Below are positions 418-38,426 of a DNA stretch of 44,852 nucleotides, in pieces. Made by a program: the position numbers and the translations under genes. This stretch comes from a phage, in sequence record PZ239914.1; one strand, written 5' to 3'. The notes under the pieces are model-generated. The model was not told the origin of the DNA. It was given only the letters and a program-made list of their open reading frames with translations, and did not search any database. Position 1 is the stretch's first letter. Every line of letters begins with the position of its first letter.

Positions 418-876
418 ATGAAAATTTTACAAGAAGAGAAAAATTACTGGGCCGCGCAATGCCTCGAAGCCCGCGAACAGGTCGAACGTGTTAGCGCGCT
501 GGCAGACACCTACCTTGCGAGCTATGAAGGCGAGGAGAAGGCGCGCAAGGAATTAGAGGAGCGCTTCGATCTGCTGTATGAGTTGATGGGTATTATGCAG
601 CGCACCGGATACACCACCACCGTCGCGCTAAACCGCATCACTGCCGAAGGTCTGCGCGAGCATTGCAAACGTGCCGAGGAGTACGTGCGCCCCAAAGGTC
701 GCCAGTCTAAGATCGACCGGAAAGACCTGGTGCTTATGGCGTGGCGCGCAAACGGTAGCTACTACTCCGATTGCCGACCGCTTAGCGTCGAGGGCGCAAA
801 GCGCCTGCAACGCGTTCTAAACAGTGGTAAGAAAATTGCCCTGTACGCGATAGATCAAGATCATGCAGAAGAGTGA
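418..876 (+). CDS. hypothetical protein (152 aa)
   Basis: ATG immediately after the upstream stop with GGAG upstream; charged coiled-coil-like N-terminus; no recognised motif. Confidence 0.55.
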   Translation: MKILQEEKNYWAAQCLEAREQVERVSALADTYLASYEGEEKARKELEERFDLLYELMGIMQRTGYTTTVALNRITAEGLREHCKRAEEYVRPKGRQSKIDRKDLVLMAWRANGSYYSDCRPLSVEGAKRLQRVLNSGKKIALYAIDQDHAEE

Positions 877-1348
877 GCAGAAAGATAGCTGGCGCACACC
901 GCCAGCTTTATTTAAACCGCTGCGCCGTAAGTTCCGATTCCGTTACGATATGGCGGCAAGCGACGCCAATCATCTGCTACCGCGTTACTTCACGGCAGAG
1001 CACAGCGCGCTTGATGTGGACTGGGCAGAGTTGAAAGGGTGGAAATGGTGCAATCCGCCGTATTCCGATCCGCTGCCGTGGGTGGAATGCGCAGCGCACG
1101 GACGACGGACTGTCATGCTGCTGAATCAGGACACGTCGACGAAGTGGGCGAAGTTGGCCCGGAAGACTGCAAACCAGATAATTCTTCTGGACTGGCGGAT
1201 TAGATTCATTCACGCCGTCACCGGCGAAGTCGGTCCGAGCAATAACAAGTGCCAGCAATTGATAATCTTTGACGAAGCGCCGCCAACCGGCAGCGCAAAA
1301 ATTGAAATAATGAGCGAAGGAGAACTCCTTGAATATCTTAATCGTTGA
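863..1348 (+). CDS. DNA N6-adenine methyltransferase (phage Dam family)
   Basis: WRTPPALF, FRYDMAASD and the catalytic NPPY motif (WCNPPYSD) in the order typical of phage Dam-family MTases. Confidence 0.8.
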   Translation: MQKSEQKDSWRTPPALFKPLRRKFRFRYDMAASDANHLLPRYFTAEHSALDVDWAELKGWKWCNPPYSDPLPWVECAAHGRRTVMLLNQDTSTKWAKLARKTANQIILLDWRIRFIHAVTGEVGPSNNKCQQLIIFDEAPPTGSAKIEIMSEGELLEYLNR

Positions 1349-1373
1349 CCGCGACCCCGCGGTCGTAGACCAA

Positions 1374-1553
1374 ATGCAAAGAGACTACTGTATTGATCCG
1401 CGACGCAATCGTGTAGTGCGCGCGTCTCGCCCTGAATACATCCTGGGCCTTGACCTCACCGGTTGGCTTGTCATGACTCAGCGTTGCCATTTCGTGTGCA
1501 ACTCCTTTACTGCGCGAAGCGCCCGTTACACCCTTATTGAGAGTTTAAAATGA
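1374..1553 (+). CDS. hypothetical small protein (59 aa), doubtful
   Basis: ORF track 1329..1553 starts at TTG; first ATG at 1374; weak RBS; fills a 200-bp gap between the Dam and HAD genes. Confidence 0.25.
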   Translation: MQRDYCIDPRRNRVVRASRPEYILGLDLTGWLVMTQRCHFVCNSFTARSARYTLIESLK

Positions 1554-2679: not shown

Positions 2680-3249
2680 ATGTACGGCGAATATGAAATA
2701 TCTGGTAAACAATTCCACCTGGCGGCAATGATAGCAAGCATCGAGTTTGACCAGTGGCGCTTAAAGTCCGACGCGTGCAAGCAAAGCCGTCTTGTTGGTG
2801 TGCTGGGCGAGATGTTTGCAGGCATGTATCTCGAAGGGCAAGCAGGAGGGCGCAGTTGTATACCGCAAGGCTTGCTTATGCGTACGGGCCTGTTTAGCGC
2901 CAATACCATTGACCGCGGCGATATCATCATGGTCGGCAAGCGCAAGGTAAAGTCCGGCCCCGACTTCCGCGAGCATGTGATCGATGCCGTATGGACCTAC
3001 GAAGTTAAGGCCACCAGCGGCATCCGTCGCGGACTGGTAGAGGCGCGTTGCGCTCGCGAGTATCTTGCCCGTCGAGTTGCAGGTGTTATCCTGGTAAGCG
3101 TAGCGTTCGGGCAGCATAACGCGCACGGCGTGATTGAGGATATCGCAGAGCCATACGTGATTGTTAATGACTGGCCCTTAGTGGAAGTGGATGGAAAGGA
3201 GTATTACGAAAGCCCGCTGGTGCGTCGCAAGATAGAAAACGGGGCATAA
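2680..3249 (+). CDS. hypothetical protein (189 aa)
   Basis: ATG with GAGGA RBS; preceded by the GCGGGC-UUCG-GCCCGC hairpin and AGGACCACA leader. Confidence 0.6.
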   Translation: MYGEYEISGKQFHLAAMIASIEFDQWRLKSDACKQSRLVGVLGEMFAGMYLEGQAGGRSCIPQGLLMRTGLFSANTIDRGDIIMVGKRKVKSGPDFREHVIDAVWTYEVKATSGIRRGLVEARCAREYLARRVAGVILVSVAFGQHNAHGVIEDIAEPYVIVNDWPLVEVDGKEYYESPLVRRKIENGA

Positions 3250-3266
3250 AGCCCCGTTGTTTTTAC
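3238..3266. terminator. bidirectional intrinsic terminator at the convergent junction
   Basis: AACGGGGC-ataaa-GCCCCGTT stem-loop followed by a T-run on plus; lies between the plus gene ending at 3249 and the minus tail fiber ending at 3284. Confidence 0.6.
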
Positions 3267-3283
3267 TACTCAGGAAGTATTCC

Positions 3284-4900
3284 CTACTCCCCGGACTCAG
3301 GCATCTCAACTCGCATATCAATCCATCGCCCCGCCGGTATATCTACGGGGTCCATATCCGCCACGCCTTCCACGATGTTTCTTGCAAATTCCGGAACTCC
3401 TGTGTGTTCCCGGTGGAACGTTTTAACAATTATGTCCCCGGTATCCAGAACCTTAAAGTCCACCCACAACAACGGCAACCCGTTGTTGTTACTCGGAATT
3501 GTAAAACCACCATCAACCCCTCCCCAGGCCGGATCCGAGTTAAACCCTAACACTCCGGATACCTTATACACGCCCGTATCGATCCGCTCGCTCTTCACAC
3601 CTTCTGCCTCCTTGTTAAGCTCCGCGGTTCCGTCGCCACGCAACTTAACGATAGGAGACGCGGGCTTAAGGTTGCCGTTAGTGTCAATGGTGGTGTTGGC
3701 GACTGAGTAGAATTTTCCCGCAGGGCCGACAAGGGTGCCGTTGTTGTACATTACCCATATCCTTCCATATGTCGCATGGTCGACAGCCCCGAATACGAAC
3801 CCGGATGTATCGGGGTTTAAATCCGGACTTGCGAGCGCCCCCCATGAAAAATCAATGGTCCAGTTTGTTGTGGAGGCGCTAACCTGGCTATGTTTCGCCA
3901 CGGAGTCCGGGGCCAATGACACTACCGACTTATACCCGAAATCCGCCACGCCCACGTTAGTTCCGGCGGATAATCGTGTAGTGTATTTATTTTGGGTGCT
4001 CCCAACCTCGACTAGGTCGCCGGCCCCGACTCCAACGTTACGCGTTGCCGCTGAGCCAAGCCCCATATTCGTACGGGCTGCGGCCTTGTTGGCAACGTCT
4101 GCCAGGTTCTGCGACGTCTTCATGAATTGCGCAGGGTTGATCGAGTTTTTGAATCCTTCGGCTTCGTCGCGGTATCCCAACGCGGCATCACGGGCGGTTT
4201 GCGCGTCTGTCTTCGCCGCGTTGGATTCGTCGCGAATAACGCCGGTATCCGTCTTAATCTGGTTGGTCTGGTCCTTGATGGCCTGCGTATCAGATTTAAG
4301 CTGATCGGTTTGCGTCTTGATTGTATTGGTGGCGTCGTGGATCGCCTGCGTATCAGCCTTAATCTGGTTGGTGGCGTCGCGAATACCAGCCGTCTCGGTC
4401 TTGAAGCCTTCTGCCTCATTGCGAAATCCTTGCGCAGCTGCTTCCGATGCGGCGGCTTGCTGTTGCAGGTTGCGCATCTCAACAGGGTCGATCTGCTTCA
4501 TTAGCTGCGACAGATAGCCCCATGACATGCCCTGCATAACCAGCCCGTTAGGTAACGTCACTGTGACTTCTTCAGCGTCGCCGAAGATTGCACGCCAGTT
4601 GTTTTCATCCGCGATCATCAAGCGTAATGCCTTCTGTGCCTGGACGGTTACGCCCATCGTTGCCAGCGACATGGTATCGCGCTTAACGCCATCCCACGCG
4701 AGGCCGGTTGCCGTTGGGCCGTCGAACGGCAGAACCAGAGTAAGCGACGTGTCGCTTTCAATGGACGCGATTGCCACGGTGTAGGGGACTTGTCCTACAA
4801 CCAGCGTTAAGAAGTCGCCAGCGTTAAACGCGGTAAACGTCGTGCCAACCCCTACAACCGCCTTGCTGTTGTTCGTTACGGATAGAGTACCCGCTGCCAT
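3284..4900 (-). CDS. side tail fiber protein with coiled-coil repeat region
   Basis: 538 aa from the ATG at 4900 (GAGGA RBS); repeated D-x-T-N-x-I-K-x-D-T-Q-A-I units; Gly/Thr-rich C-terminal region; adjacent to the J homologue. Confidence 0.7.
   Translation of the reverse strand: MAAGTLSVTNNSKAVVGVGTTFTAFNAGDFLTLVVGQVPYTVAIASIESDTSLTLVLPFDGPTATGLAWDGVKRDTMSLATMGVTVQAQKALRLMIADENNWRAIFGDAEEVTVTLPNGLVMQGMSWGYLSQLMKQIDPVEMRNLQQQAAASEAAAQGFRNEAEGFKTETAGIRDATNQIKADTQAIHDATNTIKTQTDQLKSDTQAIKDQTNQIKTDTGVIRDESNAAKTDAQTARDAALGYRDEAEGFKNSINPAQFMKTSQNLADVANKAAARTNMGLGSAATRNVGVGAGDLVEVGSTQNKYTTRLSAGTNVGVADFGYKSVVSLAPDSVAKHSQVSASTTNWTIDFSWGALASPDLNPDTSGFVFGAVDHATYGRIWVMYNNGTLVGPAGKFYSVANTTIDTNGNLKPASPIVKLRGDGTAELNKEAEGVKSERIDTGVYKVSGVLGFNSDPAWGGVDGGFTIPSNNNGLPLLWVDFKVLDTGDIIVKTFHREHTGVPEFARNIVEGVADMDPVDIPAGRWIDMRVEMPESGE
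4150..4400 (-). repeat. in-frame degenerate tandem repeats inside the tail fiber gene
   Basis: Repeated ctgcgtatcag...ttaa..ctg.t.ggt DNA units encoding IRDATNQIKADTQAIHDATNTIKTQTDQLKSDTQAIKDQTNQIKTDTGVI; approximate boundaries. Confidence 0.5.
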
Positions 4901-4921
4901 AGCTAAATCCTCATAAATTGG

Positions 4922-4950
4922 TTGCATTCTTGATCGAGCGGTGTAATACT
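4922..4950 (+). promoter_or_regulatory. candidate sigma70-type promoter (TTGCAT-17-extended -10 TGtAATACT) for the lipoprotein gene
   Basis: ATTGGTTGCA at 4917-4926 overlaps the -35; an 80-bp divergent region separates the tail fiber start (4900) from the lipoprotein start (4981). Confidence 0.4.
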
Positions 4951-20998: not shown

Positions 20999-21028
20999 TT
21001 GCATTGCGGATGTTGGTTGCAGTATATT
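20999..21028 (+). promoter_or_regulatory. candidate sigma70-type promoter (TTGCAT-18-TATATT) with two TTGGTTGCA motifs
   Basis: AT-rich upstream tract at 20961-20998; motifs at 21012-21020 and 21026-21034; drives the plus genes at 21064-22182. Confidence 0.45.
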
Positions 21029-21063
21029 GGTTGCACACCAACAGAGATATGAAGGAAAACAAA

Positions 21064-27301: not shown

Positions 27302-27514
27302 TTAAACGTGGCGACCGTAGTATCGGGTTAACATGCTTTCTACTTCGCTTATAGCGCCTTCTGTGTAGCGTATTTGCGATAGTATCTCGATCCGCTCGCT
27401 GATAGACATGCCTATTGCCGCTGCCGTTCGTTCGAATCGGCGCAAGCCTTCGAGTTGTTTGCGTAATTCCTTCAGGCGGTCCGCCTGCGTGCTCATGAAT
27501 ACTTGTCTAATCAT
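27302..27514 (-). CDS. hypothetical protein (70 aa)
   Basis: ORF-track ORF; stop overlaps the upstream gene. Confidence 0.4.
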   Translation of the reverse strand: MIRQVFMSTQADRLKELRKQLEGLRRFERTAAAIGMSISERIEILSQIRYTEGAISEVESMLTRYYGRHV

Positions 27515-28796: not shown

Positions 28797-28859
28797 GTGT
28801 AATACTCCTCTCGTTGATTGGTCGCAGTATGGCGTCTATGTTGGTTGCAAGTCAAGCAA

Positions 28860-29330: not shown

Positions 29331-29822
29331 TTACGCCGCGTTACGCCCGATTCGCTCGGCAACGTCCCACTGCTTACCATCAAATAACGCCTGTCTGCCG
29401 ATTGCACGGCGCACCAGACCCTTAAGCACTTCCCCTCCTTGCTTGCGGAACAGCGGCAGCGTAGCCCGTACCTTCGCCCAGTCACCCAGGCGGATCGCAT
29501 CGTCAAAATCACCCGCGACGTCGTCCGGCATGATCGGACCTGGACCAGCATTGATAACCAGGTCCACCAGCGCGTCGAATTGCGCCTGATTGATGCTCGG
29601 GTGTGCGTACTTGTTCACCCAGTTTTCGGCATACGCCACATCGCGCTTGAGTAGCTCCAGCGCTTCCGCGCGGGTAATGCTTCGAGGCGGATTAGTTCCA
29701 GTATGACCATAGCCCCAGGTATACAGGCCGCGGGCCTGCTCTTTCTTGGTCGCGAAATACGGCACTGGGCTGAAAGCCTCCCATGCTGCCGTAAATCTTA
29801 GACCGTTGTCACTGAATCGCAT
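29331..29822 (-). CDS. endolysin (phage lysozyme, GH24, P22 gp19-like)
   Basis: N-terminal FSDNGLRFTAAWEAF...GLYTWGYGHTG matches the E...GxxTxGxGHTG lysozyme signature. Confidence 0.8.
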   Translation of the reverse strand: MRFSDNGLRFTAAWEAFSPVPYFATKKEQARGLYTWGYGHTGTNPPRSITRAEALELLKRDVAYAENWVNKYAHPSINQAQFDALVDLVINAGPGPIMPDDVAGDFDDAIRLGDWAKVRATLPLFRKQGGEVLKGLVRRAIGRQALFDGKQWDVAERIGRNAA

Positions 29823-30054
29823 GTTTTACCCCATTCAAAACAGCATTACGCAGTGTGCGCAATGCAAACAGCCATATTAACGCGGTCCAGGTGGTATCAG
29901 ATACGTCTCCGGTTTGCAACAATCCGATAAAACAGACCATTGCCGTTAACAGATACAGCACCCGACCGAAAAAGCCATCCCGGACTGACGGCGCATACAC
30001 GTTAAACAGGGACGAAGCCCCGATGATAACAAACAACAGGACGGAGATAATCAT
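29809..30054 (-). CDS. holin/antiholin-like membrane protein (81 aa)
   Basis: Two to three predicted TM segments; immediately upstream of the endolysin. Confidence 0.5.
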   Translation of the reverse strand: MIISVLLFVIIGASSLFNVYAPSVRDGFFGRVLYLLTAMVCFIGLLQTGDVSDTTWTALIWLFALRTLRNAVLNGVKHAIQ

Positions 30055-30341
30055 TTTGCACCCCCCGGAAGTCGGAACGACGCAATAGTCTCCCTGATCC
30101 GGTCGGCGATTGGCATCCAGAAGATCGCGGTTACGAAGCCTAAACCGGCGACAGTGCGCTCACCCGACAAACCAGCCCACTCAGCGATAGCCGGTGCGCC
30201 AAATATGGCACACAGGAAGCCAACTACAACATACAAAACGAAGTTTAGCGGCCCCTTCGTAGCCTCACCATGAATGCGTGCGCCTACGAAGCCACCCGCC
30301 AGACATGCCAGGGCGAATAGCCACTCGTTTAGCTTATCCAT
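30051..30341 (-). CDS. putative holin (96 aa)
   Basis: Three hydrophobic segments and a charged C-terminus; first gene of the lysis cassette. Confidence 0.5.
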   Translation of the reverse strand: MDKLNEWLFALACLAGGFVGARIHGEATKGPLNFVLYVVVGFLCAIFGAPAIAEWAGLSGERTVAGLGFVTAIFWMPIADRIRETIASFRLPGGAK

Positions 30342-30393
30342 AAAAAAGTCCCAGTAAGTTTTATCTCACTGGGACTATATCACGCTTGCATAT

Positions 30394-30720
30394 TTAATCG
30401 AAAATTGACCACTTGCCGACGCCTTTCCACTCCCACCCTTCAGATCGGACGGCCTCGAACATTCGCCCGCCGATCATATCGCGATACCATAGCCACCACA
30501 TACGCAACATGGTCGGGTGCTCCGTGATGCCACGGCGCTTGTATATCTGAAACGTCATGCGGGTAATGCTGGCGGCTTCCACCGCGGGCCAAATCAGGAA
30601 TACCCATACCAACAGCGCCAGCACCGTAAGCAGGCACAGTCCCCAGATCAAACCAAACCAATAAATCACATCGTGTAGCATCGAATTGCCCATTCCGGTT
30701 TGCCAATATGGCGCGCCCAT
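30394..30720 (-). CDS. hypothetical membrane protein (start uncertain)
   Basis: Trp-rich TM segments VIYWFGLIWGLCLLTVLALLVWVFLIW; weak RBS at all candidate starts. Confidence 0.4.
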   Translation of the reverse strand: MGAPYWQTGMGNSMLHDVIYWFGLIWGLCLLTVLALLVWVFLIWPAVEAASITRMTFQIYKRRGITEHPTMLRMWWLWYRDMIGGRMFEAVRSEGWEWKGVGKWSIFD

Positions 30721-30802
30721 GCTCGCGCCACGAAGTAATTGCGAAACACCCGACCGCCGATCTCAAAGCGGTTGTGCATCAGCATATCACGGATCGTCGC
30801 AC

Positions 30803-31363
30803 TCATTTCAGAATCACCGAGCGCGGGTCGATGGCGTTCATGCTGCCGTCTGGTTCGACACGGATAAACCCGACGCCGTAGCTCTTCGCGTCGTCGTTAG
30901 CCTGGCGAACAGCATACTGCTTGTCAATCAGGTCGCGCATGGCGGCATTCATGCGCGCGTTAACCTGACTGGCATCGTATTTGGTATATGGGTGCTCCGT
31001 ACGGGTAATATCTTTCGCCACGACGCCAGGGCGCTTGAACTGCTTAAGCAAATAGTTCCGACCTACGCGAGTGAAGTTAATTAAGCCTTCGGGCGGTACG
31101 ACGCGCTGTGTATTGCGGCTTTGCAGTATAACGCTGACAGTACTAACGCGCTGGGCTACGAACAGTTCGCCGTCGTTGCTATCACGCAGCACATCCCCGA
31201 CCCGCACGTCGTGATGCACAACCTGCAAATGTTTATGTAGGCCGGATTTCTTGTACCAGAATACGCGGTCGCTCGGCTCATGGTACATGCGCACATAGTT
31301 CGGCAGCACTTCGATCGGGGTAAGGAATCGCCCATTATGCTTATTGCGGAATATCATTTTCAT
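30803..31363 (-). CDS. hypothetical protein (186 aa)
   Basis: ORF-track ORF; start overlaps the stop of a 54-aa ORF (ATGA). Confidence 0.55.
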   Translation of the reverse strand: MKMIFRNKHNGRFLTPIEVLPNYVRMYHEPSDRVFWYKKSGLHKHLQVVHHDVRVGDVLRDSNDGELFVAQRVSTVSVILQSRNTQRVVPPEGLINFTRVGRNYLLKQFKRPGVVAKDITRTEHPYTKYDASQVNARMNAAMRDLIDKQYAVRQANDDAKSYGVGFIRVEPDGSMNAIDPRSVILK

Positions 31364-31524
31364 TCTGTCAATCTCCTGTAGTTACGAACTAATGTGAGGC
31401 GCGAGATAGTGCGGCGAGTACCACACTTAGGGTGTGAAATAGTCACGTTGCCGTTTGCTTCTTCTGTCACGAAGTAAGTCAGTCGCGTGGCCTTACTCCG
31501 CCAGCGTTCAGGTTGCTTGTTCAT
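31360..31524 (-). CDS. possible small protein (54 aa)
   Basis: ATG at 31524; MNKQPERWRSKATRLTYFVTEEANGNVTISHPKCGTRRTISRLTLVRNYRRLTE; below the ORF-track cutoff. Confidence 0.3.
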   Translation of the reverse strand: MNKQPERWRSKATRLTYFVTEEANGNVTISHPKCGTRRTISRLTLVRNYRRLTE

Positions 31525-31790
31525 TTTGCCAGTCTCCAGTGTTTGCCTACCCGCTCAATGGCGGGCTTTCGGCGTAATGTAATACGGATCCCCATTGGTT
31601 GCAAGGAAGTCCGCACCCTGAAATCGTGTTGTGCTGCGAACTGGTGCAAGTAGCGAGTCTGCGTCAACGGCTTCACGTCATCGCGATAGCACCAGAACAC
31701 TGATTCGCCCGCATTCGCATTCCTAGCCCATATTCGTATGCAATGCAGTGGAATATGCCACGAAAGCTGTTTCGCTCGTCTACGGCCCAT
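31521..31790 (-). CDS. hypothetical basic protein (89 aa)
   Basis: AAGGGG RBS; contains a TTGGTTGCA copy at 31594-31603. Confidence 0.35.
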   Translation of the reverse strand: MGRRRAKQLSWHIPLHCIRIWARNANAGESVFWCYRDDVKPLTQTRYLHQFAAQHDFRVRTSLQPMGIRITLRRKPAIERVGKHWRLAK

Positions 31791-31799
31791 TTTGGCCCC

Positions 31800-32126
31800 T
31801 TATTTCGCAAGCTGGGCGAATAGTTCGCGCTGGGCTTTAATCCGGGCGACGTTAGTCACTGCCGTCTCGCCGATCCCGAAGCGATACGCCAGGCGCTCAC
31901 GGGCAAATGCCAGCGCGTAGTCCTGGATAGCGTTCGCCAACGGCTGGATCTCTTCCATAGTGTCTAAGCGGTCCTCCAGCATACAGGCGATGGCCTGCTG
32001 CGTGACGCGAACAACGGACCACGCTGCCGATAGTCTTTCGATCGCTTCCGCTCCCTCACTGGCGAACTCCGCCGCTTCTTGCGCCGCCGCCATAGCCATT
32101 GCGTAATTCCAGATAATCGCTTTCAT
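31800..32126 (-). CDS. hypothetical protein (108 aa)
   Basis: GGAGG RBS; preceded by the candidate promoter at 32155-32183. Confidence 0.5.
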   Translation of the reverse strand: MKAIIWNYAMAMAAAQEAAEFASEGAEAIERLSAAWSVVRVTQQAIACMLEDRLDTMEEIQPLANAIQDYALAFARERLAYRFGIGETAVTNVARIKAQRELFAQLAK

Positions 32127-32154
32127 TGTTCAGTCCTCCGGTTGGTGTGCAACC

Positions 32155-32183
32155 AAAATATCAGGGTGCCAGGCTGAATGCAA
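32155..32183 (-). promoter_or_regulatory. candidate sigma70-type promoter (TTGCAT-17-TATTTT) with two TTGGTTGCA motifs
   Basis: Minus-strand motifs at 32148-32156 and 32179-32188. Confidence 0.4.
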
Positions 32184-32338
32184 CCAATATTAATCACGCG
32201 CATGAAAAAGTTGATCGCTATCTGCTGCAACTGCAAACTGCATTTTCTGCCCACCATTCAGCAACTCGCATTGGTTGCCTAGTTCATCCGCGACCGCACT
32301 TCGCATCATGCTGCCGTGTATTTTGCAATCCCCGGATT

Positions 32339-32512
32339 TTATGCAGTCTCAGACGAGGGGGGCCATTGACCCCCGTCTAGTCTGAAAGACTGGTAGTTGT
32401 CCCGCTTGTCCCGCTCCCCTCCAGGCCGCGTCCTCCGGGGCGGGACGGGGGTGCTGTCCCGTTTTGTCCCGCCTCTTGTTTGTCCCGCTTTTTGTCCCGC
32501 TTAGTTTATGCA
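32339..32512. repeat. iteron-rich noncoding repeat element, copy B
   Basis: Same 5' hairpin module and six TGTCCCGCT-type iterons as copy A, with a divergent central spacer; between the primase end and the 31800-32126 gene. Confidence 0.8.
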
Positions 32513-32586
32513 ATAAAACTGCATAACTATTCACTATATTCACACTACACGGCAACCAATACGACCAGATAAAAACACTCAAAATG

Positions 32587-32669
32587 GCAACCAATGCGCG
32601 CAAAATTTAATCTTTTAGCGATATGGGAATTCCCATATCGGCAACCAATACGCGCAAAATTTAATCTTT
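32587..32669. repeat. 30-bp direct repeats flanking a 20-bp perfect palindrome at the primase 3' end
   Basis: GGCAACCAAT(G/A)CGCGCAAAATTTAATCTTT at 32587-32616 and 32640-32669; palindrome GATATGGGAATTCCCATATC at 32620-32639; second repeat contains the primase stop codon. Confidence 0.7.
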
Positions 32670-34925
32670 CAGGTCGTCATCGGTCGCAGAAAGCGTGATG
32701 GGTATATTCGTTTTTATGACGATATTAGACGACCCATAGATGGCCCCGGTGTGCGGGTCTGTATAAAAACCTAACACTCCGCGCTCCACCATATCGTCAA
32801 TGGCCTTCGTCGATGTGCCACCTTTCGCTAGTCCAGCCTGGCGGACGATTGCCGATTTACTGAATCCGGTATGATCCGGGTTATCTTCCATCAGTTTTTC
32901 CAGTGCCGCATAAAGCACTTTCTCTTTTTCGTTGCGCGGGCCTGCGGCGTTCTCATCCTTAACTGCGGCTTTTCCAGCGGACTTCGCCTGCTCAATGGCG
33001 AACGGTGCCAGGGCGACCGGTACGAGGTAAAGAGTCTCGTCGCGTGGCGTGGATGCAATCGGCTTGACGTCCCAGCCGGCAACCACATCGCCGAAGTCCG
33101 GCCCGGTGCTGGTGGACTGGTGTGCCTCGAACGCTTCGGACTTGCGGAGATCCACCTTAACCTTGCACTTGAGTAGTACGAAGCCGCGCGGCGCTTGCTT
33201 GATGCCGTTACGCGCCTTTTCGTGATACAGGTTCAATTGGCCGGGCTGATTGTCGTCCGGTTGCTCCAGGAAGAACGCAGAATCAACAGCACCATGCAGC
33301 GCGCCGGACCCGCGGGGGGTTCTGCTGCCGTTTGCGCCCTTCGCCGGGTGATGGATGACGCCCGCGCTGCCGCCTGTATTTTCCGCAATGGCCTTCAGCG
33401 CTTTGACCACTTCGCCCATATCGCTGGCGTTGTTCTCGTCGAACGGTTTAGCATCGGCGGACCGCAACGCTACAGTCTGGTTGAGTGAGTCGAACGCCAC
33501 CAGGCCAACCGGTTCGCCGTTAGCGGTGCGGTTGATGAAGCTGATAACTTCACGCAATCCTGACTTGCTGGTGATATCCCAGCCGCGTGATTGCAGATCG
33601 ATAATGTGCAGCTTGTCCAGGTCGTGCTCGTATTTAATCTGCAATGCTTCCTTACGCTGGTTGGAGGCTTCGCCGCCTTCCGCGTCGAAATAGAAGTTAT
33701 GGCACTGGACGACCTTCGCACCGCCAAACGGGATACCGGCAGATACGGACGCCATCTGGCCCAGCACATAGAACGATTTACCGATGTTCGACTCACCGGC
33801 AAGATACCAGGTCGATTTGAAGTTGACCAGGCCTTCTATGATCGGGTCGTGCTTACTGAACAGTGCGACCGGTTCGTTGTCCAGGTCGGCATCGGTACAT
33901 ACGCCGTACTCGTCGCCATCTCCGACCGCATCGACGATATGCTCATAGCACGATTCCACCTCCTCGTCGTCCAGTCCAGGGAGGATGGCGGCGATTTGCT
34001 TACGTGACATGTTGTGCGGTTCGACGTTCAGGTGGTCCGGGATCCCTATAAGACGTAGCGCCAGGTGCTGGTGTCTGTTCAGTTCCGAGCAACACTCGTT
34101 GCCGGTGTGCATACACTTGAAACGGATCTCGCCATCCTTAACCATGATAGCCGTCGACCCTTCGCCGCTGTGCAGGTGTTCGTTAGGGCACGGCACTTCA
34201 TAGCCCCGACCGGACGACAGTGGCTCGAATCCTGCCTGGAAGCACCAATCCAGAATGCCGTCAGCCACACCATCATCGCCCTGGGTTAGTTCGCGGCGTA
34301 CTTCCTCTTTTTCCATTCCCAGCTTATCAGCCAGGCGAAGCAGACGACGGACACGGGCGCGCTTTCCGTAATGGCATTTAATAACAGACTGCTGGTGTGG
34401 CAGGTACATTAGGCGGTTAGTGTCTTTCGTGCAATCGTCGAAGTCCACATCTGACAGGCCCAGTTGGTGTAATAGTGCATACTGGACGCGGCCCAGGTCT
34501 TCAGCCGGTACAGGCTTGTCAGTGAGCACCAGGAAACGAGCGCAACGCGTGCCGCCTTTCAGCGGGTGGCGGTCGCCGGTAGTGGTGTGAAATACATGTT
34601 CCAGTCCCGCGTCGATGAAAGCCTTACGGCAGCGGCGCAGGGTGCGGGTGTCGGTGCGGTCAATATCGAAGAACAGGATCGAGCGGTCCACAGCACTGGT
34701 CTTGCGGCGTAAGCCGTCACTGGTATACGCCACGATGCCATCGGCCTTACGCTTGCGTCGCGCATACTCGGCTTTATCTTCCGTTTTGTTGATATGCACC
34801 GAGGAGATTTCTTTCGCATCATTGATAAATTCGAAAAACTCTTCGGTAGTCATCTGGAAGTTTTCCGCCCGGGCTTTTTCGCCTTTTTTAGCGGGTCGTG
34901 TTACAGCGAATTTAATTAAGCTCAT
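32661..34925 (-). CDS. DNA primase / P-loop helicase fusion protein
   Basis: 754 aa; Walker A GESNIGKS; Cys/His-rich zinc-binding-like segment CPNEHLHSGEGSTAIMVKDGEIRFKCMHTGNECC. Confidence 0.75.
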   Translation of the reverse strand: MSLIKFAVTRPAKKGEKARAENFQMTTEEFFEFINDAKEISSVHINKTEDKAEYARRKRKADGIVAYTSDGLRRKTSAVDRSILFFDIDRTDTRTLRRCRKAFIDAGLEHVFHTTTGDRHPLKGGTRCARFLVLTDKPVPAEDLGRVQYALLHQLGLSDVDFDDCTKDTNRLMYLPHQQSVIKCHYGKRARVRRLLRLADKLGMEKEEVRRELTQGDDGVADGILDWCFQAGFEPLSSGRGYEVPCPNEHLHSGEGSTAIMVKDGEIRFKCMHTGNECCSELNRHQHLALRLIGIPDHLNVEPHNMSRKQIAAILPGLDDEEVESCYEHIVDAVGDGDEYGVCTDADLDNEPVALFSKHDPIIEGLVNFKSTWYLAGESNIGKSFYVLGQMASVSAGIPFGGAKVVQCHNFYFDAEGGEASNQRKEALQIKYEHDLDKLHIIDLQSRGWDITSKSGLREVISFINRTANGEPVGLVAFDSLNQTVALRSADAKPFDENNASDMGEVVKALKAIAENTGGSAGVIHHPAKGANGSRTPRGSGALHGAVDSAFFLEQPDDNQPGQLNLYHEKARNGIKQAPRGFVLLKCKVKVDLRKSEAFEAHQSTSTGPDFGDVVAGWDVKPIASTPRDETLYLVPVALAPFAIEQAKSAGKAAVKDENAAGPRNEKEKVLYAALEKLMEDNPDHTGFSKSAIVRQAGLAKGGTSTKAIDDMVERGVLGFYTDPHTGAIYGSSNIVIKTNIPITLSATDDDLKD

Positions 34926-34935
34926 TGCCGTGGCC

Positions 34936-35265
34936 TTACTTAGAAGTTTTATTATTGCGTACCCAGGAGCGCACTGTGCTCTGATTAATTCCGGTCAACT
35001 CGGCGATCATTGCCCAGGACTTTCCCTCATTGCGCAAACGGATAACCTGCTTTTTGTATTCTTCCATTTCTTCATTGTGTTTTTGCAGCTTGCTCGCTGC
35101 CGTACCGTTGAGCAATTCCAGCCTGGCGCGTAATTCTTTTTCGGCACTGCGCAGACGTTCGATTTCAAATAACACCGCCCCCACGGCATCTGTATAAGCC
35201 CATGACCGGCTTGTCTCACTGCAAACAGTCTTCGTTAACATTTCGATTGCGTCGTTTACATTCAT
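34936..35265 (-). CDS. HTH DNA-binding protein (109 aa)
   Basis: C-terminal HTH-like KSWAMIAELTGINQSTVRSWV; coiled-coil N-terminus; GAGGG RBS; first gene of the leftward arm. Confidence 0.55.
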   Translation of the reverse strand: MNVNDAIEMLTKTVCSETSRSWAYTDAVGAVLFEIERLRSAEKELRARLELLNGTAASKLQKHNEEMEEYKKQVIRLRNEGKSWAMIAELTGINQSTVRSWVRNNKTSK

Positions 35266-35441: not shown

Positions 35442-35471
35442 TTGACACCCATCCTGCAACCAATCTATCAT
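35442..35471 (+). promoter_or_regulatory. candidate strong rightward promoter (TTGACA-18-TATCAT) with upstream T/A tract
   Basis: Perfect -35 TTGACA at 35442-35447, -10 TATCAT at 35466-35471, T9A4 tract at 35422-35434; TGCAACCAAT motif in the spacer. Confidence 0.5.
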
Positions 35472-38336: not shown

Positions 38337-38426
38337 CCGCTCAGGCGCAACCAAGTAAATTGGCAACCAAGCCGAACGGGGTGGCTTCCAATAACCCCGA
38401 TACATGTGAAAATGAGGAATTGGAAA

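Follow-up and report, generated by a model that had tools for sequence, protein, structure and literature searches.

A block of four small genes on the minus strand of the phage sequence PZ239914.1 (positions 30803-32126 of the 44,852 nucleotides, nt, which were analysed here and are called the window) is the first part of a six-gene operon, specific to the genus Dhillonvirus and equipped with its own terminator, that lies between the primase-helicase gene with its iteron-like repeats and the lysis cassette. The four open reading frames (ORFs), referred to as g108, g89, g54 and g186, are genuine genes. In profile searches their products match no enzyme family, and the reading that they are binding proteins at the phage-host interface, involved in host takeover or counter-defence or sensed by the host, is the one that we find best supported, at about even odds. 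The genes of the operon, from the first to the last and with product lengths in amino acids (aa) and isoelectric points (pI), are the following.

31800-32126, minus strand: g108, 108 aa, pI 5.0, with a GGAGGA Shine-Dalgarno sequence 7 nt upstream of the ATG.
31521-31790, minus strand: g89, 89 aa, pI 11.6, phrog_12533, the conserved member of the block.
31360-31524, minus strand: g54, 54 aa, pI 11.2, with a GGAGA Shine-Dalgarno sequence within the end of g89.
30803-31363, minus strand: g186, 186 aa, pI 10.0, with an AGGAGA Shine-Dalgarno sequence.
30666-30806, minus strand: g46, a conserved basic ORF of 46 aa in the same operon, phrog_13628, outside the block as first described.
30394-30720, minus strand: the final operon gene, for a predicted membrane protein of 108 aa counted from the first ATG, phrog_2531, unknown function; annotated in other genomes as 95 aa from Met14, equivalent to a start at 30681.

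The window belongs to a Dhillonvirus, a virulent Escherichia siphovirus of the HK578/SSL-2009a/SO-1 type. The region aligns with 80-95% DNA identity to about 158 deposited phage genomes, nearly all of Escherichia phages of this genus, the closest being mckay, rolling and SECphi4. For synteny, identity and the ratio of nonsynonymous to synonymous substitution rates (dN/dS) the window was compared with 22 Dhillonvirus loci from GenBank and IMG/VR, dN/dS being computed by the method of Nei and Gojobori for each gene against the window.

The first-pass annotation of this DNA had described a tightly packed block of four genes with overlapping stop and start codons. The ORF list contains all four at these coordinates, all on the minus strand, but the unit is one of six genes with its own terminator, as g46 and the gene for the 95/108-aa membrane protein continue the block and are followed by a conserved hairpin with a T-run and by the holin. 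Overlapping stop and start codons are found at the 89/54, 54/186 and 186/next-ORF junctions (ATGA), and not at 108/89, where there is a 9-nt spacer. The 54- and 89-aa calls had been thought the least certain. The 89-aa call is instead the most secure one, with 157 phage records (154 of them full length), mostly 80-95% identity and a dN/dS of 0.14-0.39; the 54-aa call also is a genuine gene (dN/dS 0.23 at a dS of 0.97 against the 64%-identical homologue of McMelon), yet a sporadic one, present in about 25 of about 158 Dhillonvirus records. Comparison of gene content across related phages, proposed as a check, showed the genes in synteny in the 22 loci, with all four frames open wherever they are present, and a lack of conservation was not borne out. 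Against the window the four block genes have dN/dS values of 0.14-0.74, the primase, holin and endolysin genes used for comparison mostly 0.03-0.10.

Two small minus-strand ORFs immediately upstream of g108 (32123-32257 and 32190-32309, of 44 and 39 aa) served as controls; they were treated as non-coding because of frequent stops and a dN/dS mostly of 0.4-1.1. These ORFs overlap the promoter boxes described below, and their counterparts are annotated as one or two genes in some GenBank records (L001, 4162-4490; L022, 4410-4589); five genomes have a separate, inserted small gene immediately upstream of g108. That chance open frames are among the ORFs, with the 54- and 89-aa calls as the main suspects, is hardly credible. 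Both are short, g54 has no PHROG family, and the annotation of JLBYU60 merges the two frames into a single coding sequence (CDS) of 143 aa; but there is purifying selection on both, g89 is full length in nearly all records, g54-type genes are kept in the same slot at 50-64% identity with intact frames, both genes have a Shine-Dalgarno sequence, and the two control ORFs fail the tests that g54 and g89 pass. In proteomics of phage EE09 the block proteins were not detected, but the infected-culture samples gave only four phage proteins, which makes this result uninformative.

The absence of recognisable motifs reported at first pass agrees with the database searches: none of the four proteins has a Pfam or NCBIfam match, and PHROGs gives families of unknown function only. 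Full-length matches were obtained to phrog_10243, phrog_12533 and phrog_9839 (E values 2.8e-73, 3.8e-56 and 5.7e-49), which correspond to the "hypothetical proteins" gp52, gp51 and gp50, respectively, of SO-1/HK578-type Dhillonviruses and have three of the block genes as members. These three genes are found in the same order, between primase-helicase and holins, in 156-157 Dhillonvirus records; g54 has no PHROG, Pfam or NCBIfam match. The three databases were searched with single sequences, Pfam in addition with every single member of the g108 and g89 alignments, and g186 and g54 gave no Pfam family at E <= 0.1, including DUF7244 and SH3b. Searches of 5.8 billion proteins returned only Dhillonvirus-type sequences, carried by contigs of ~44-46 kb, a profile search of 1.84 billion representatives gave 24 matches to g186, mostly fragments, profile searches of the PDB were empty, and for g186 and g89 the genomes of 185,579 bacterial species yielded no relative. 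Judged by these searches the block families occur only in the genus Dhillonvirus, and none of the proteins is homologous to any known anti-defence protein. The remote homology searches and structure predictions recommended at first pass yielded no known function, and folds were predicted for g186 and g108.

Across the 22 loci identity is mostly 96-98% for the primase, 94-100% for holins and endolysin, 87-98% for g46 (dN/dS 0.05-0.31), 71-96% for g89, 62-89% for the last membrane gene, 47-95% for g108 and 39-98% for g186, with one divergent locus (L014) lower than the others for most of the primase, holin, endolysin, g46 and g89 genes. Compared with the complete genome of SM_S22 only eight segments of the window are without a match of at least 80%, and one of them, 30881-31524, comprises g186 and g54. 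Other unmatched segments include the tail-fibre tip, the cor/tail-tip region and the region of a Big_2 protein; inside one of the eight there is also a variable small gene, a 70-aa ORF (27302-27514, minus strand) directly 3' of the phosphoesterase gene.

The AlphaFold model of g186 has a predicted local distance difference test (pLDDT) value of about 90 over residues 1-106 and is composed of two small beta-barrels (residues ~1-51 and 52-102), a disordered linker (107-129), a long helix (131-162) and a C-terminal beta-hairpin which carries the conserved motif GVGFIRVEPDGSMNAIDPRSVILK. Residues 1-102 show the small five-stranded barrel of the Tudor/SH3-like (KOW-like) group, superposing on solved members. 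In this model the structural scores establish the fold and single out no partner, and a Foldseek comparison with viral structures found orthologues only. The C-terminal module, i.e. the helix and GFIRVxxDGSMxxIDPR, also occurs as standalone proteins of 80-97 aa, one of which is encoded in the early/replication region on the contig of an unrelated phage. A relationship of the g186 C-terminus to anti-Tmn, suggested by a shared "AIDP", was rejected (hhalign probability 0.5%).

The dN/dS of g186 is mostly 0.2-0.5, reaching 0.63 against the near-identical SECphi4, and dS between alleles is saturated at 1-1.9, from which the allele classes appear to be old. When three modules of 116 family members were clustered, they fell into 3, 6 and 3 classes, joined in 16 combinations; every one of the four possible pairings of the two main N-terminal with the two main C-terminal classes is among them, which indicates that alleles have been reshuffled by recombination. 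The combination of the window is rare (3/116 members), and an allele at least 80% identical to it is found in only 5 of 156 records. In nine of the 156 records, including JL1, BF9, Teewinot, Bas84 and JLBYU60, g186 is truncated or split; it is therefore probably dispensable, being unneeded for plaque formation. In JLBYU60 (L019) the 143-aa CDS in place of the 89- and 54-aa frames (3561-3992) goes with a 1-nt length change relative to the window and with a split g186 (2843-3564), and in the metagenomic sequences P0238 and P0252 deletions fuse g89 or the N-terminus of g186 to a different reading frame within the membrane-protein gene that follows; the merged CDS and the fusions could be sequencing errors or natural deletion variants.

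Homologues of g54, 50-100% identical, are restricted to Dhillonvirus and invariably occupy one and the same slot, that between g89 and g186. Being absent from most genomes, g54 is dispensable, and comparison of the loci shows a swap slot with at least five alternative contents, g54 among them. In mckay and two other loci the slot is empty, and elsewhere it contains a basic gene of 50-57 aa (the g54 type), an acidic gene of 44-50 aa with a pI of 4.1 (SECphi4, SECphi18 and SM_S22; 84 aa in one locus), a gene of 62-63 aa or a 114-aa partial paralogue of g186, with up to three genes together in one locus. The acidic protein (SECphi4, L022, 3659-3811; L003, 40739-40891; L025, 3918-4052) occurs in many Dhillonviruses, ends in ...DYEMDGIATVCDGDTKTVDEIEETEQ and belongs to phrog_15977; in size and charge it recalls small proteins that act as DNA mimics or decoys. 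By eye g54 looks like a single-barrel paralogue of the g186 domains, a relationship which was rejected on the hhalign probability (<=2%).

For g108 the AlphaFold model (pLDDT 94) is a bundle of four long helices with generic structural neighbours only. In the family alignment the first helix and the last ~45 residues are nearly invariant and the middle is hypervariable. With a dN/dS of 0.14-0.74, dN of g108 reaches 0.4 at a dS of 0.5-1.3, not far above that of the primase (0.3-0.5 in most loci), which argues for accelerated change of the protein. Profile matches to the helix-turn-helix (HTH) on the invariant C-terminus are far below threshold, and no compact HTH is present in the model. By sequence comparison g89 is conserved genus-wide.

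The host-takeover or anti-defence role proposed at first pass fits this variation, namely the divergence of g108 and g186, the mosaic of g186 and the slot of g54, although nothing shows either function directly. The host-interface reading is drawn from the way the genes vary, from dispensability and predicted folds, and from a precedent, that of anti-Tmn and Ksap1, two small genus-specific proteins which proved to be an immune inhibitor and an immune trigger. Host RNA polymerase would transcribe the operon from a promoter with two TTGGTTGCA boxes, and an intrinsic terminator before the holin would close it. The products would be non-enzymatic and would bind host macromolecules stoichiometrically, with nucleic-acid-associated machinery or immune sensors as candidates. 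Their part would be in host takeover or counter-defence, or they would be proteins which host sensors came to recognise, and they would stand outside the core machinery of replication, assembly and lysis. In this scheme we infer the promoter, the time of expression, the mode of binding and the host or defence target. A more specific version is speculative and rather doubtful: g186 would represent a new class of phage effector whose barrels attach to a nucleic-acid machine of the host, with RNA polymerase as the first candidate, and whose tail oligomerises or makes a second contact, with host sensors driving the shuffling of modules and the slot (g54 and the acidic 44-50 aa gene) acting as a reservoir of uncharacterised counter-defence proteins.

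Several points weigh against the host-interface reading. Our literature and database searches turned up neither an experiment nor a homology that would connect any of the four proteins with a target in the host or with a defence system. Anti-defence genes typically have a patchy distribution; by such generic criteria g54 is patchy, g108 and g186 are variable and g186 is truncated in some records, yet g108, g89 and g186 are universal in the genus, and g89 is well conserved. Basic charge and Tudor/KOW-like folds would fit equally well a role on the DNA or RNA of the phage itself or on RNA polymerase, and the location directly upstream of the late and lysis genes would suit a late-gene regulator. 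No transcriptome of the genus was found in the literature, which makes "early" an assumption. Escape mutations of Dhillonviruses against several defence systems have been mapped to SSB, DNA polymerase, portal, Ksap1, Nmad5, a PD-(D/E)XK nuclease, primase and the gp45-gp46 operon, and the block genes are not implicated in the literature on escapers and triggers of Retron-Eco8, Borvo, RAZR, Swarozyc, retron IX and OLD or in a phenotype-only study of Zorya, Druantia and ARMADA.

The order of genes on the minus strand is a 109-aa HTH protein, the primase-helicase, a non-coding repeat stretch, the block, the holins, the endolysin and then phosphoesterase, terminase and structural genes; all late genes are downstream of the block on this strand. 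The neighbours which matter for the alternatives are the following.

32661-34925, minus strand: primase-helicase, 754 aa.
32127-32660, minus strand: non-coding stretch with repeats.
30051-30341, minus strand: holin.
29809-30054, minus strand: holin.
29331-29822, minus strand: endolysin.

The non-coding stretch contains, shortly after the primase-helicase gene, at least six GCGGGACAA-like repeats (32390-32520, minus strand), which the first-pass annotation called the "repeat element" and which look like the iterons of an origin. Further upstream the direct repeat AAAGATTAAATTTTGCGCGYATTGGTTGCC is present twice, at ~32586-32668, and Rfam gave no family above threshold in 30200-32800. With the operon starting about 250 nt downstream of the GCGGGACAA-type repeats, the basic proteins g89, g54, g186 and g46 might be accessory DNA-binding factors for replication or recombination at an adjacent iteron-bearing origin. 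This is unlikely. It would agree with the pI values of 10-11.6, with the DNA and RNA binders found among SH3-like barrels, with the standalone relative of the g186 C-terminal module in a replication/early region and with a weak likeness of the g89 N-terminus to the arm-type DNA-binding domain of lambda Int, but the latter is not significant, replication factors are normally conserved whereas few genes of the genome vary as much as g186 and g108, g54 is optional, and the HK578 escape mutants affecting replication lie in the gp45-gp46 operon, outside the block (10.64898/2026.07.10.737580).

The position immediately upstream of the holin-holin-endolysin cassette, the SH3-like fold of g186, the membrane protein at the end of the operon and a precedent in Drexlerviridae (PMC13164509) would favour a function as lysis-module auxiliaries, in which the barrels of g186 bind the cell wall or modulate the endolysin. 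We consider this very improbable, given that g186 matches neither DUF7244 nor any SH3b family, that g186, g89, g54 and g108, read by eye, have no N-terminal signal peptide or hydrophobic segment and should be cytoplasmic, that between the operon and the lysis genes there is a strong terminator and that the role in T1 is itself only proposed.

The end of the operon is marked by two overlapping elements.

30341-30376, minus strand: terminator-like element from the terminator scan, a 12-base-pair hairpin (30376-30347) followed by T6, which runs straight into the holin ATG.
30382-30374, minus strand: extended -10-like TGATATAGT, overlapping the 5' arm of the hairpin.

The hairpin folds with -24.8 kcal/mol (z = -5.7), and its stem and flanks are kept in 22 of 22 loci, with differences only in the loop, the length of the T-run and the divergent L014. 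From its structure and conservation it is the predicted intrinsic terminator of the operon. The distance from the end of the operon to TGATATAGT is 12-20 nt, and the holin has no obvious Shine-Dalgarno sequence outside the hairpin stem. TGATATAGT is a possible start for late transcription; starts there would give transcripts without the full hairpin, and read-through transcripts would terminate. The combined element could be a late-gene switch or a control of holin translation.

The late switch of lambda is laid out as Q-pR'-tR'-S-R, and the layout here, with TGATATAGT and a stable hairpin abutting the holin ATG in all loci, recalls it. One or more of the block genes, most plausibly g89 or g186, might accordingly regulate late transcription, as an activator or as a Q-like antiterminator acting at the element before the holin. 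The universal, conserved and very basic g89, the Tudor/KOW fold of g186 and the arrangement of all late genes (holins, endolysin, terminase and structural) downstream on the minus strand would agree with this. We judge it improbable all the same: the sequences match none of the Q, Mor/C, Ogr or sigma families, and for lambda-type Q no block protein has a Pfam or NCBIfam match; an essential regulator would hardly be expected to be as hypervariable as g186 or, as g186 is in nine of 156 plaque-forming isolates, truncated; the hairpin may do no more than terminate the operon; and a better DNA-binding candidate is encoded elsewhere. The latter is the 109-aa protein with a sigma region-4-like HTH (34936-35265, minus strand) just upstream of the primase-helicase, a bona fide HTH protein with HTH_23, Sigma70_r4_2 and HTH_28 above the Pfam cut-offs. 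It is the counterpart of HK578 gp45 and SECphi18 gp04, annotated variously as resolvase, transposase or "gamma".

Upstream of g108 there are two copies of the 9-mer TTGGTTGCA, of which the window contains 12 exact copies against 0.42 expected.

32187-32179, minus strand: box 1, TTGGTTGCA, containing the -35-like TTGCAT (32183-32178).
32156-32148, minus strand: box 2, TTGGTTGCA, overlapping the -10-like TATTTT (32160-32155) and lying within the 16-mer TTGGTTGCACACCAAC.
95-120, 2009-2030, 4918-4926, 21013-21035, 28841-28849, 32148-32187 and 35455-35463: TTGGTTGCA sites of the window, those upstream of g108 included.
32551-32648 and 38346-38370: copies of TTGGTTGCA with one mismatch.

The TTGGTTGCA-type promoter claimed at first pass stands as to the motif, which is real and strongly enriched; as to the promoter, a generic sigma-70 scan called none at these boxes, and its function is deduced from the conservation of the arrangement across loci. 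The -35-like and -10-like hexamers are separated by a 17-nt spacer, and 17 of 22 loci have the two-box arrangement no more than 110 nt from the g108 start; in the remaining five, where an additional small gene intervenes, the 16-mer TTGGTTGCACACCAAC is further upstream. The 16-mer is found in 20 of 25 loci and, in the window, is common to the sites at 32156 and at 21027, the latter before plus-strand ORFs inside the late region. The two-box site is probably the operon promoter, used by host RNA polymerase.

The copies of TTGGTTGCA are mostly intergenic and often paired 14-31 nt apart or as an inverted pair, with pairs at 95/112 (upstream of the anti-Tmn ORF) and 2009/2022, a single copy at 4918 and a copy at 35455 which overlaps a predicted promoter. 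As a set they look like a phage regulon with an operator or promoter element, and since their distance to -10-like elements varies the boxes could be operators and not promoter elements. The most obvious candidate binder is the 109-aa HTH protein. A role of g108 as HTH regulator on these boxes was considered and is not supported, as no profile match reaches the threshold and the model shows four bundled helices. Within the coding sequence of g89 there is one exact TTGGTTGCA in antisense orientation (31595-31603, plus strand), which may be a chance occurrence or have a regulatory function on the antisense strand.

What the analysis provides is above all careful annotation of genes publicly listed as hypothetical proteins. 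Already known are the sequences, as hypothetical proteins and PHROG families, and a hypervariable accessory region in a virulent phage is of a familiar kind; new here are the operon boundaries, the structural assignments, the module mosaic of g186, the swap slot of g54 and the exclusion of the known Dhillonvirus accessory functions. Dhillonviruses are routine tools of phage-defence research (SECphi4/6/18, HK578, BASEL Bas14-18) and candidates for phage therapy. Since two of its genes rank with the most variable of those compared at the locus, and since it has a swap slot, the operon is a sensible place to look for factors behind the differing defence sensitivity of close phages, and its genes (54-186 aa) are compact candidates for phage engineering. 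If the operon did hold a late-gene regulator, this would fill a gap in the expression timing of phages without an annotated RNA polymerase.

Among known systems the barrels of g186 compare with the C-terminal Tudor domain of UvrD/PcrA, the RNA polymerase-interacting domain of CarD, the KOW domain of NusG/Spt5 and the ribosomal proteins eL14, eL27 and bL19. Sequence identity to these is 6-19%, there is no Pfam match, and the tandem of barrels with helix and motif-bearing hairpin has no counterpart among the matches. The N-terminus of g89 (MGRRR...FWCYRDD) resembles that of lambda Int (MGRRR...YYCYRDP; PF09003), with both motifs at the same distance from the N-terminus; a single BLASTP comparison with Int residues 1-64 gave E = 0.016 over 37 residues, one of 16 g89 family members matched PF09003 (E = 0.06) and the hhalign probability was 9%, which is not significant. 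With no recombinase domain in g89, the resemblance to the arm-binding domain is a lead only.

The likeness to the Q/pR'/tR' system of lambda is one of layout only, with small genes followed by a promoter-like element and a strong hairpin terminator, lysis genes and late genes; the block proteins have no similarity to any Q protein, and no paused-complex or Q-binding element was identified here. In T1-like phages a standalone SH3 protein adjoins the lysis genes, and a role in lysis has been proposed for it (PMC13164509). It shares with g186 the SH3-like fold, the obscure role and, both coming from virulent coliphages of siphovirus morphology, the position immediately before the holin and endolysin genes, but there is no sequence relation, g186 is larger, multi-domain and hypervariable where the T1-like protein is conserved, and two ORFs and a terminator separate g186 from the lysis genes.

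The closest precedents for the host-interface reading, anti-Tmn and Ksap1, are encoded elsewhere in the window, on the other strand, and are not homologous to the block proteins. Anti-Tmn (SM_S22 ORF35) inhibits the Tmn defence system, and its activity is altered by small sequence differences (PMC11846954). The window has a homologue 85% identical to the active SM_S22 protein, a 152-aa ORF (418-876, plus strand) which overlaps the start of a Dam-type methyltransferase gene (863-1348) and whose activity, judged from sequence, is not assured. Ksap1 (SECphi18 gp51) is bound by KpAvs2, the Avs2 immune sensor of Klebsiella, and triggers it (PMC11564622). Its homologue of 74 aa (1329-1550, plus strand), 86% identical to SECphi18 gp51 and the only tblastn match of Ksap1 in the window, sits between the Dam methyltransferase gene and the next downstream gene (1550-2020). 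An identity of the block with the anti-Tmn, Ksap1 or "SECphi4 56-aa" locus was rejected, as all of these map elsewhere or misfit by size. What anti-Tmn and Ksap1 have in common with the block proteins is that they are small, genus-restricted, non-enzymatic and encoded by the same phages.

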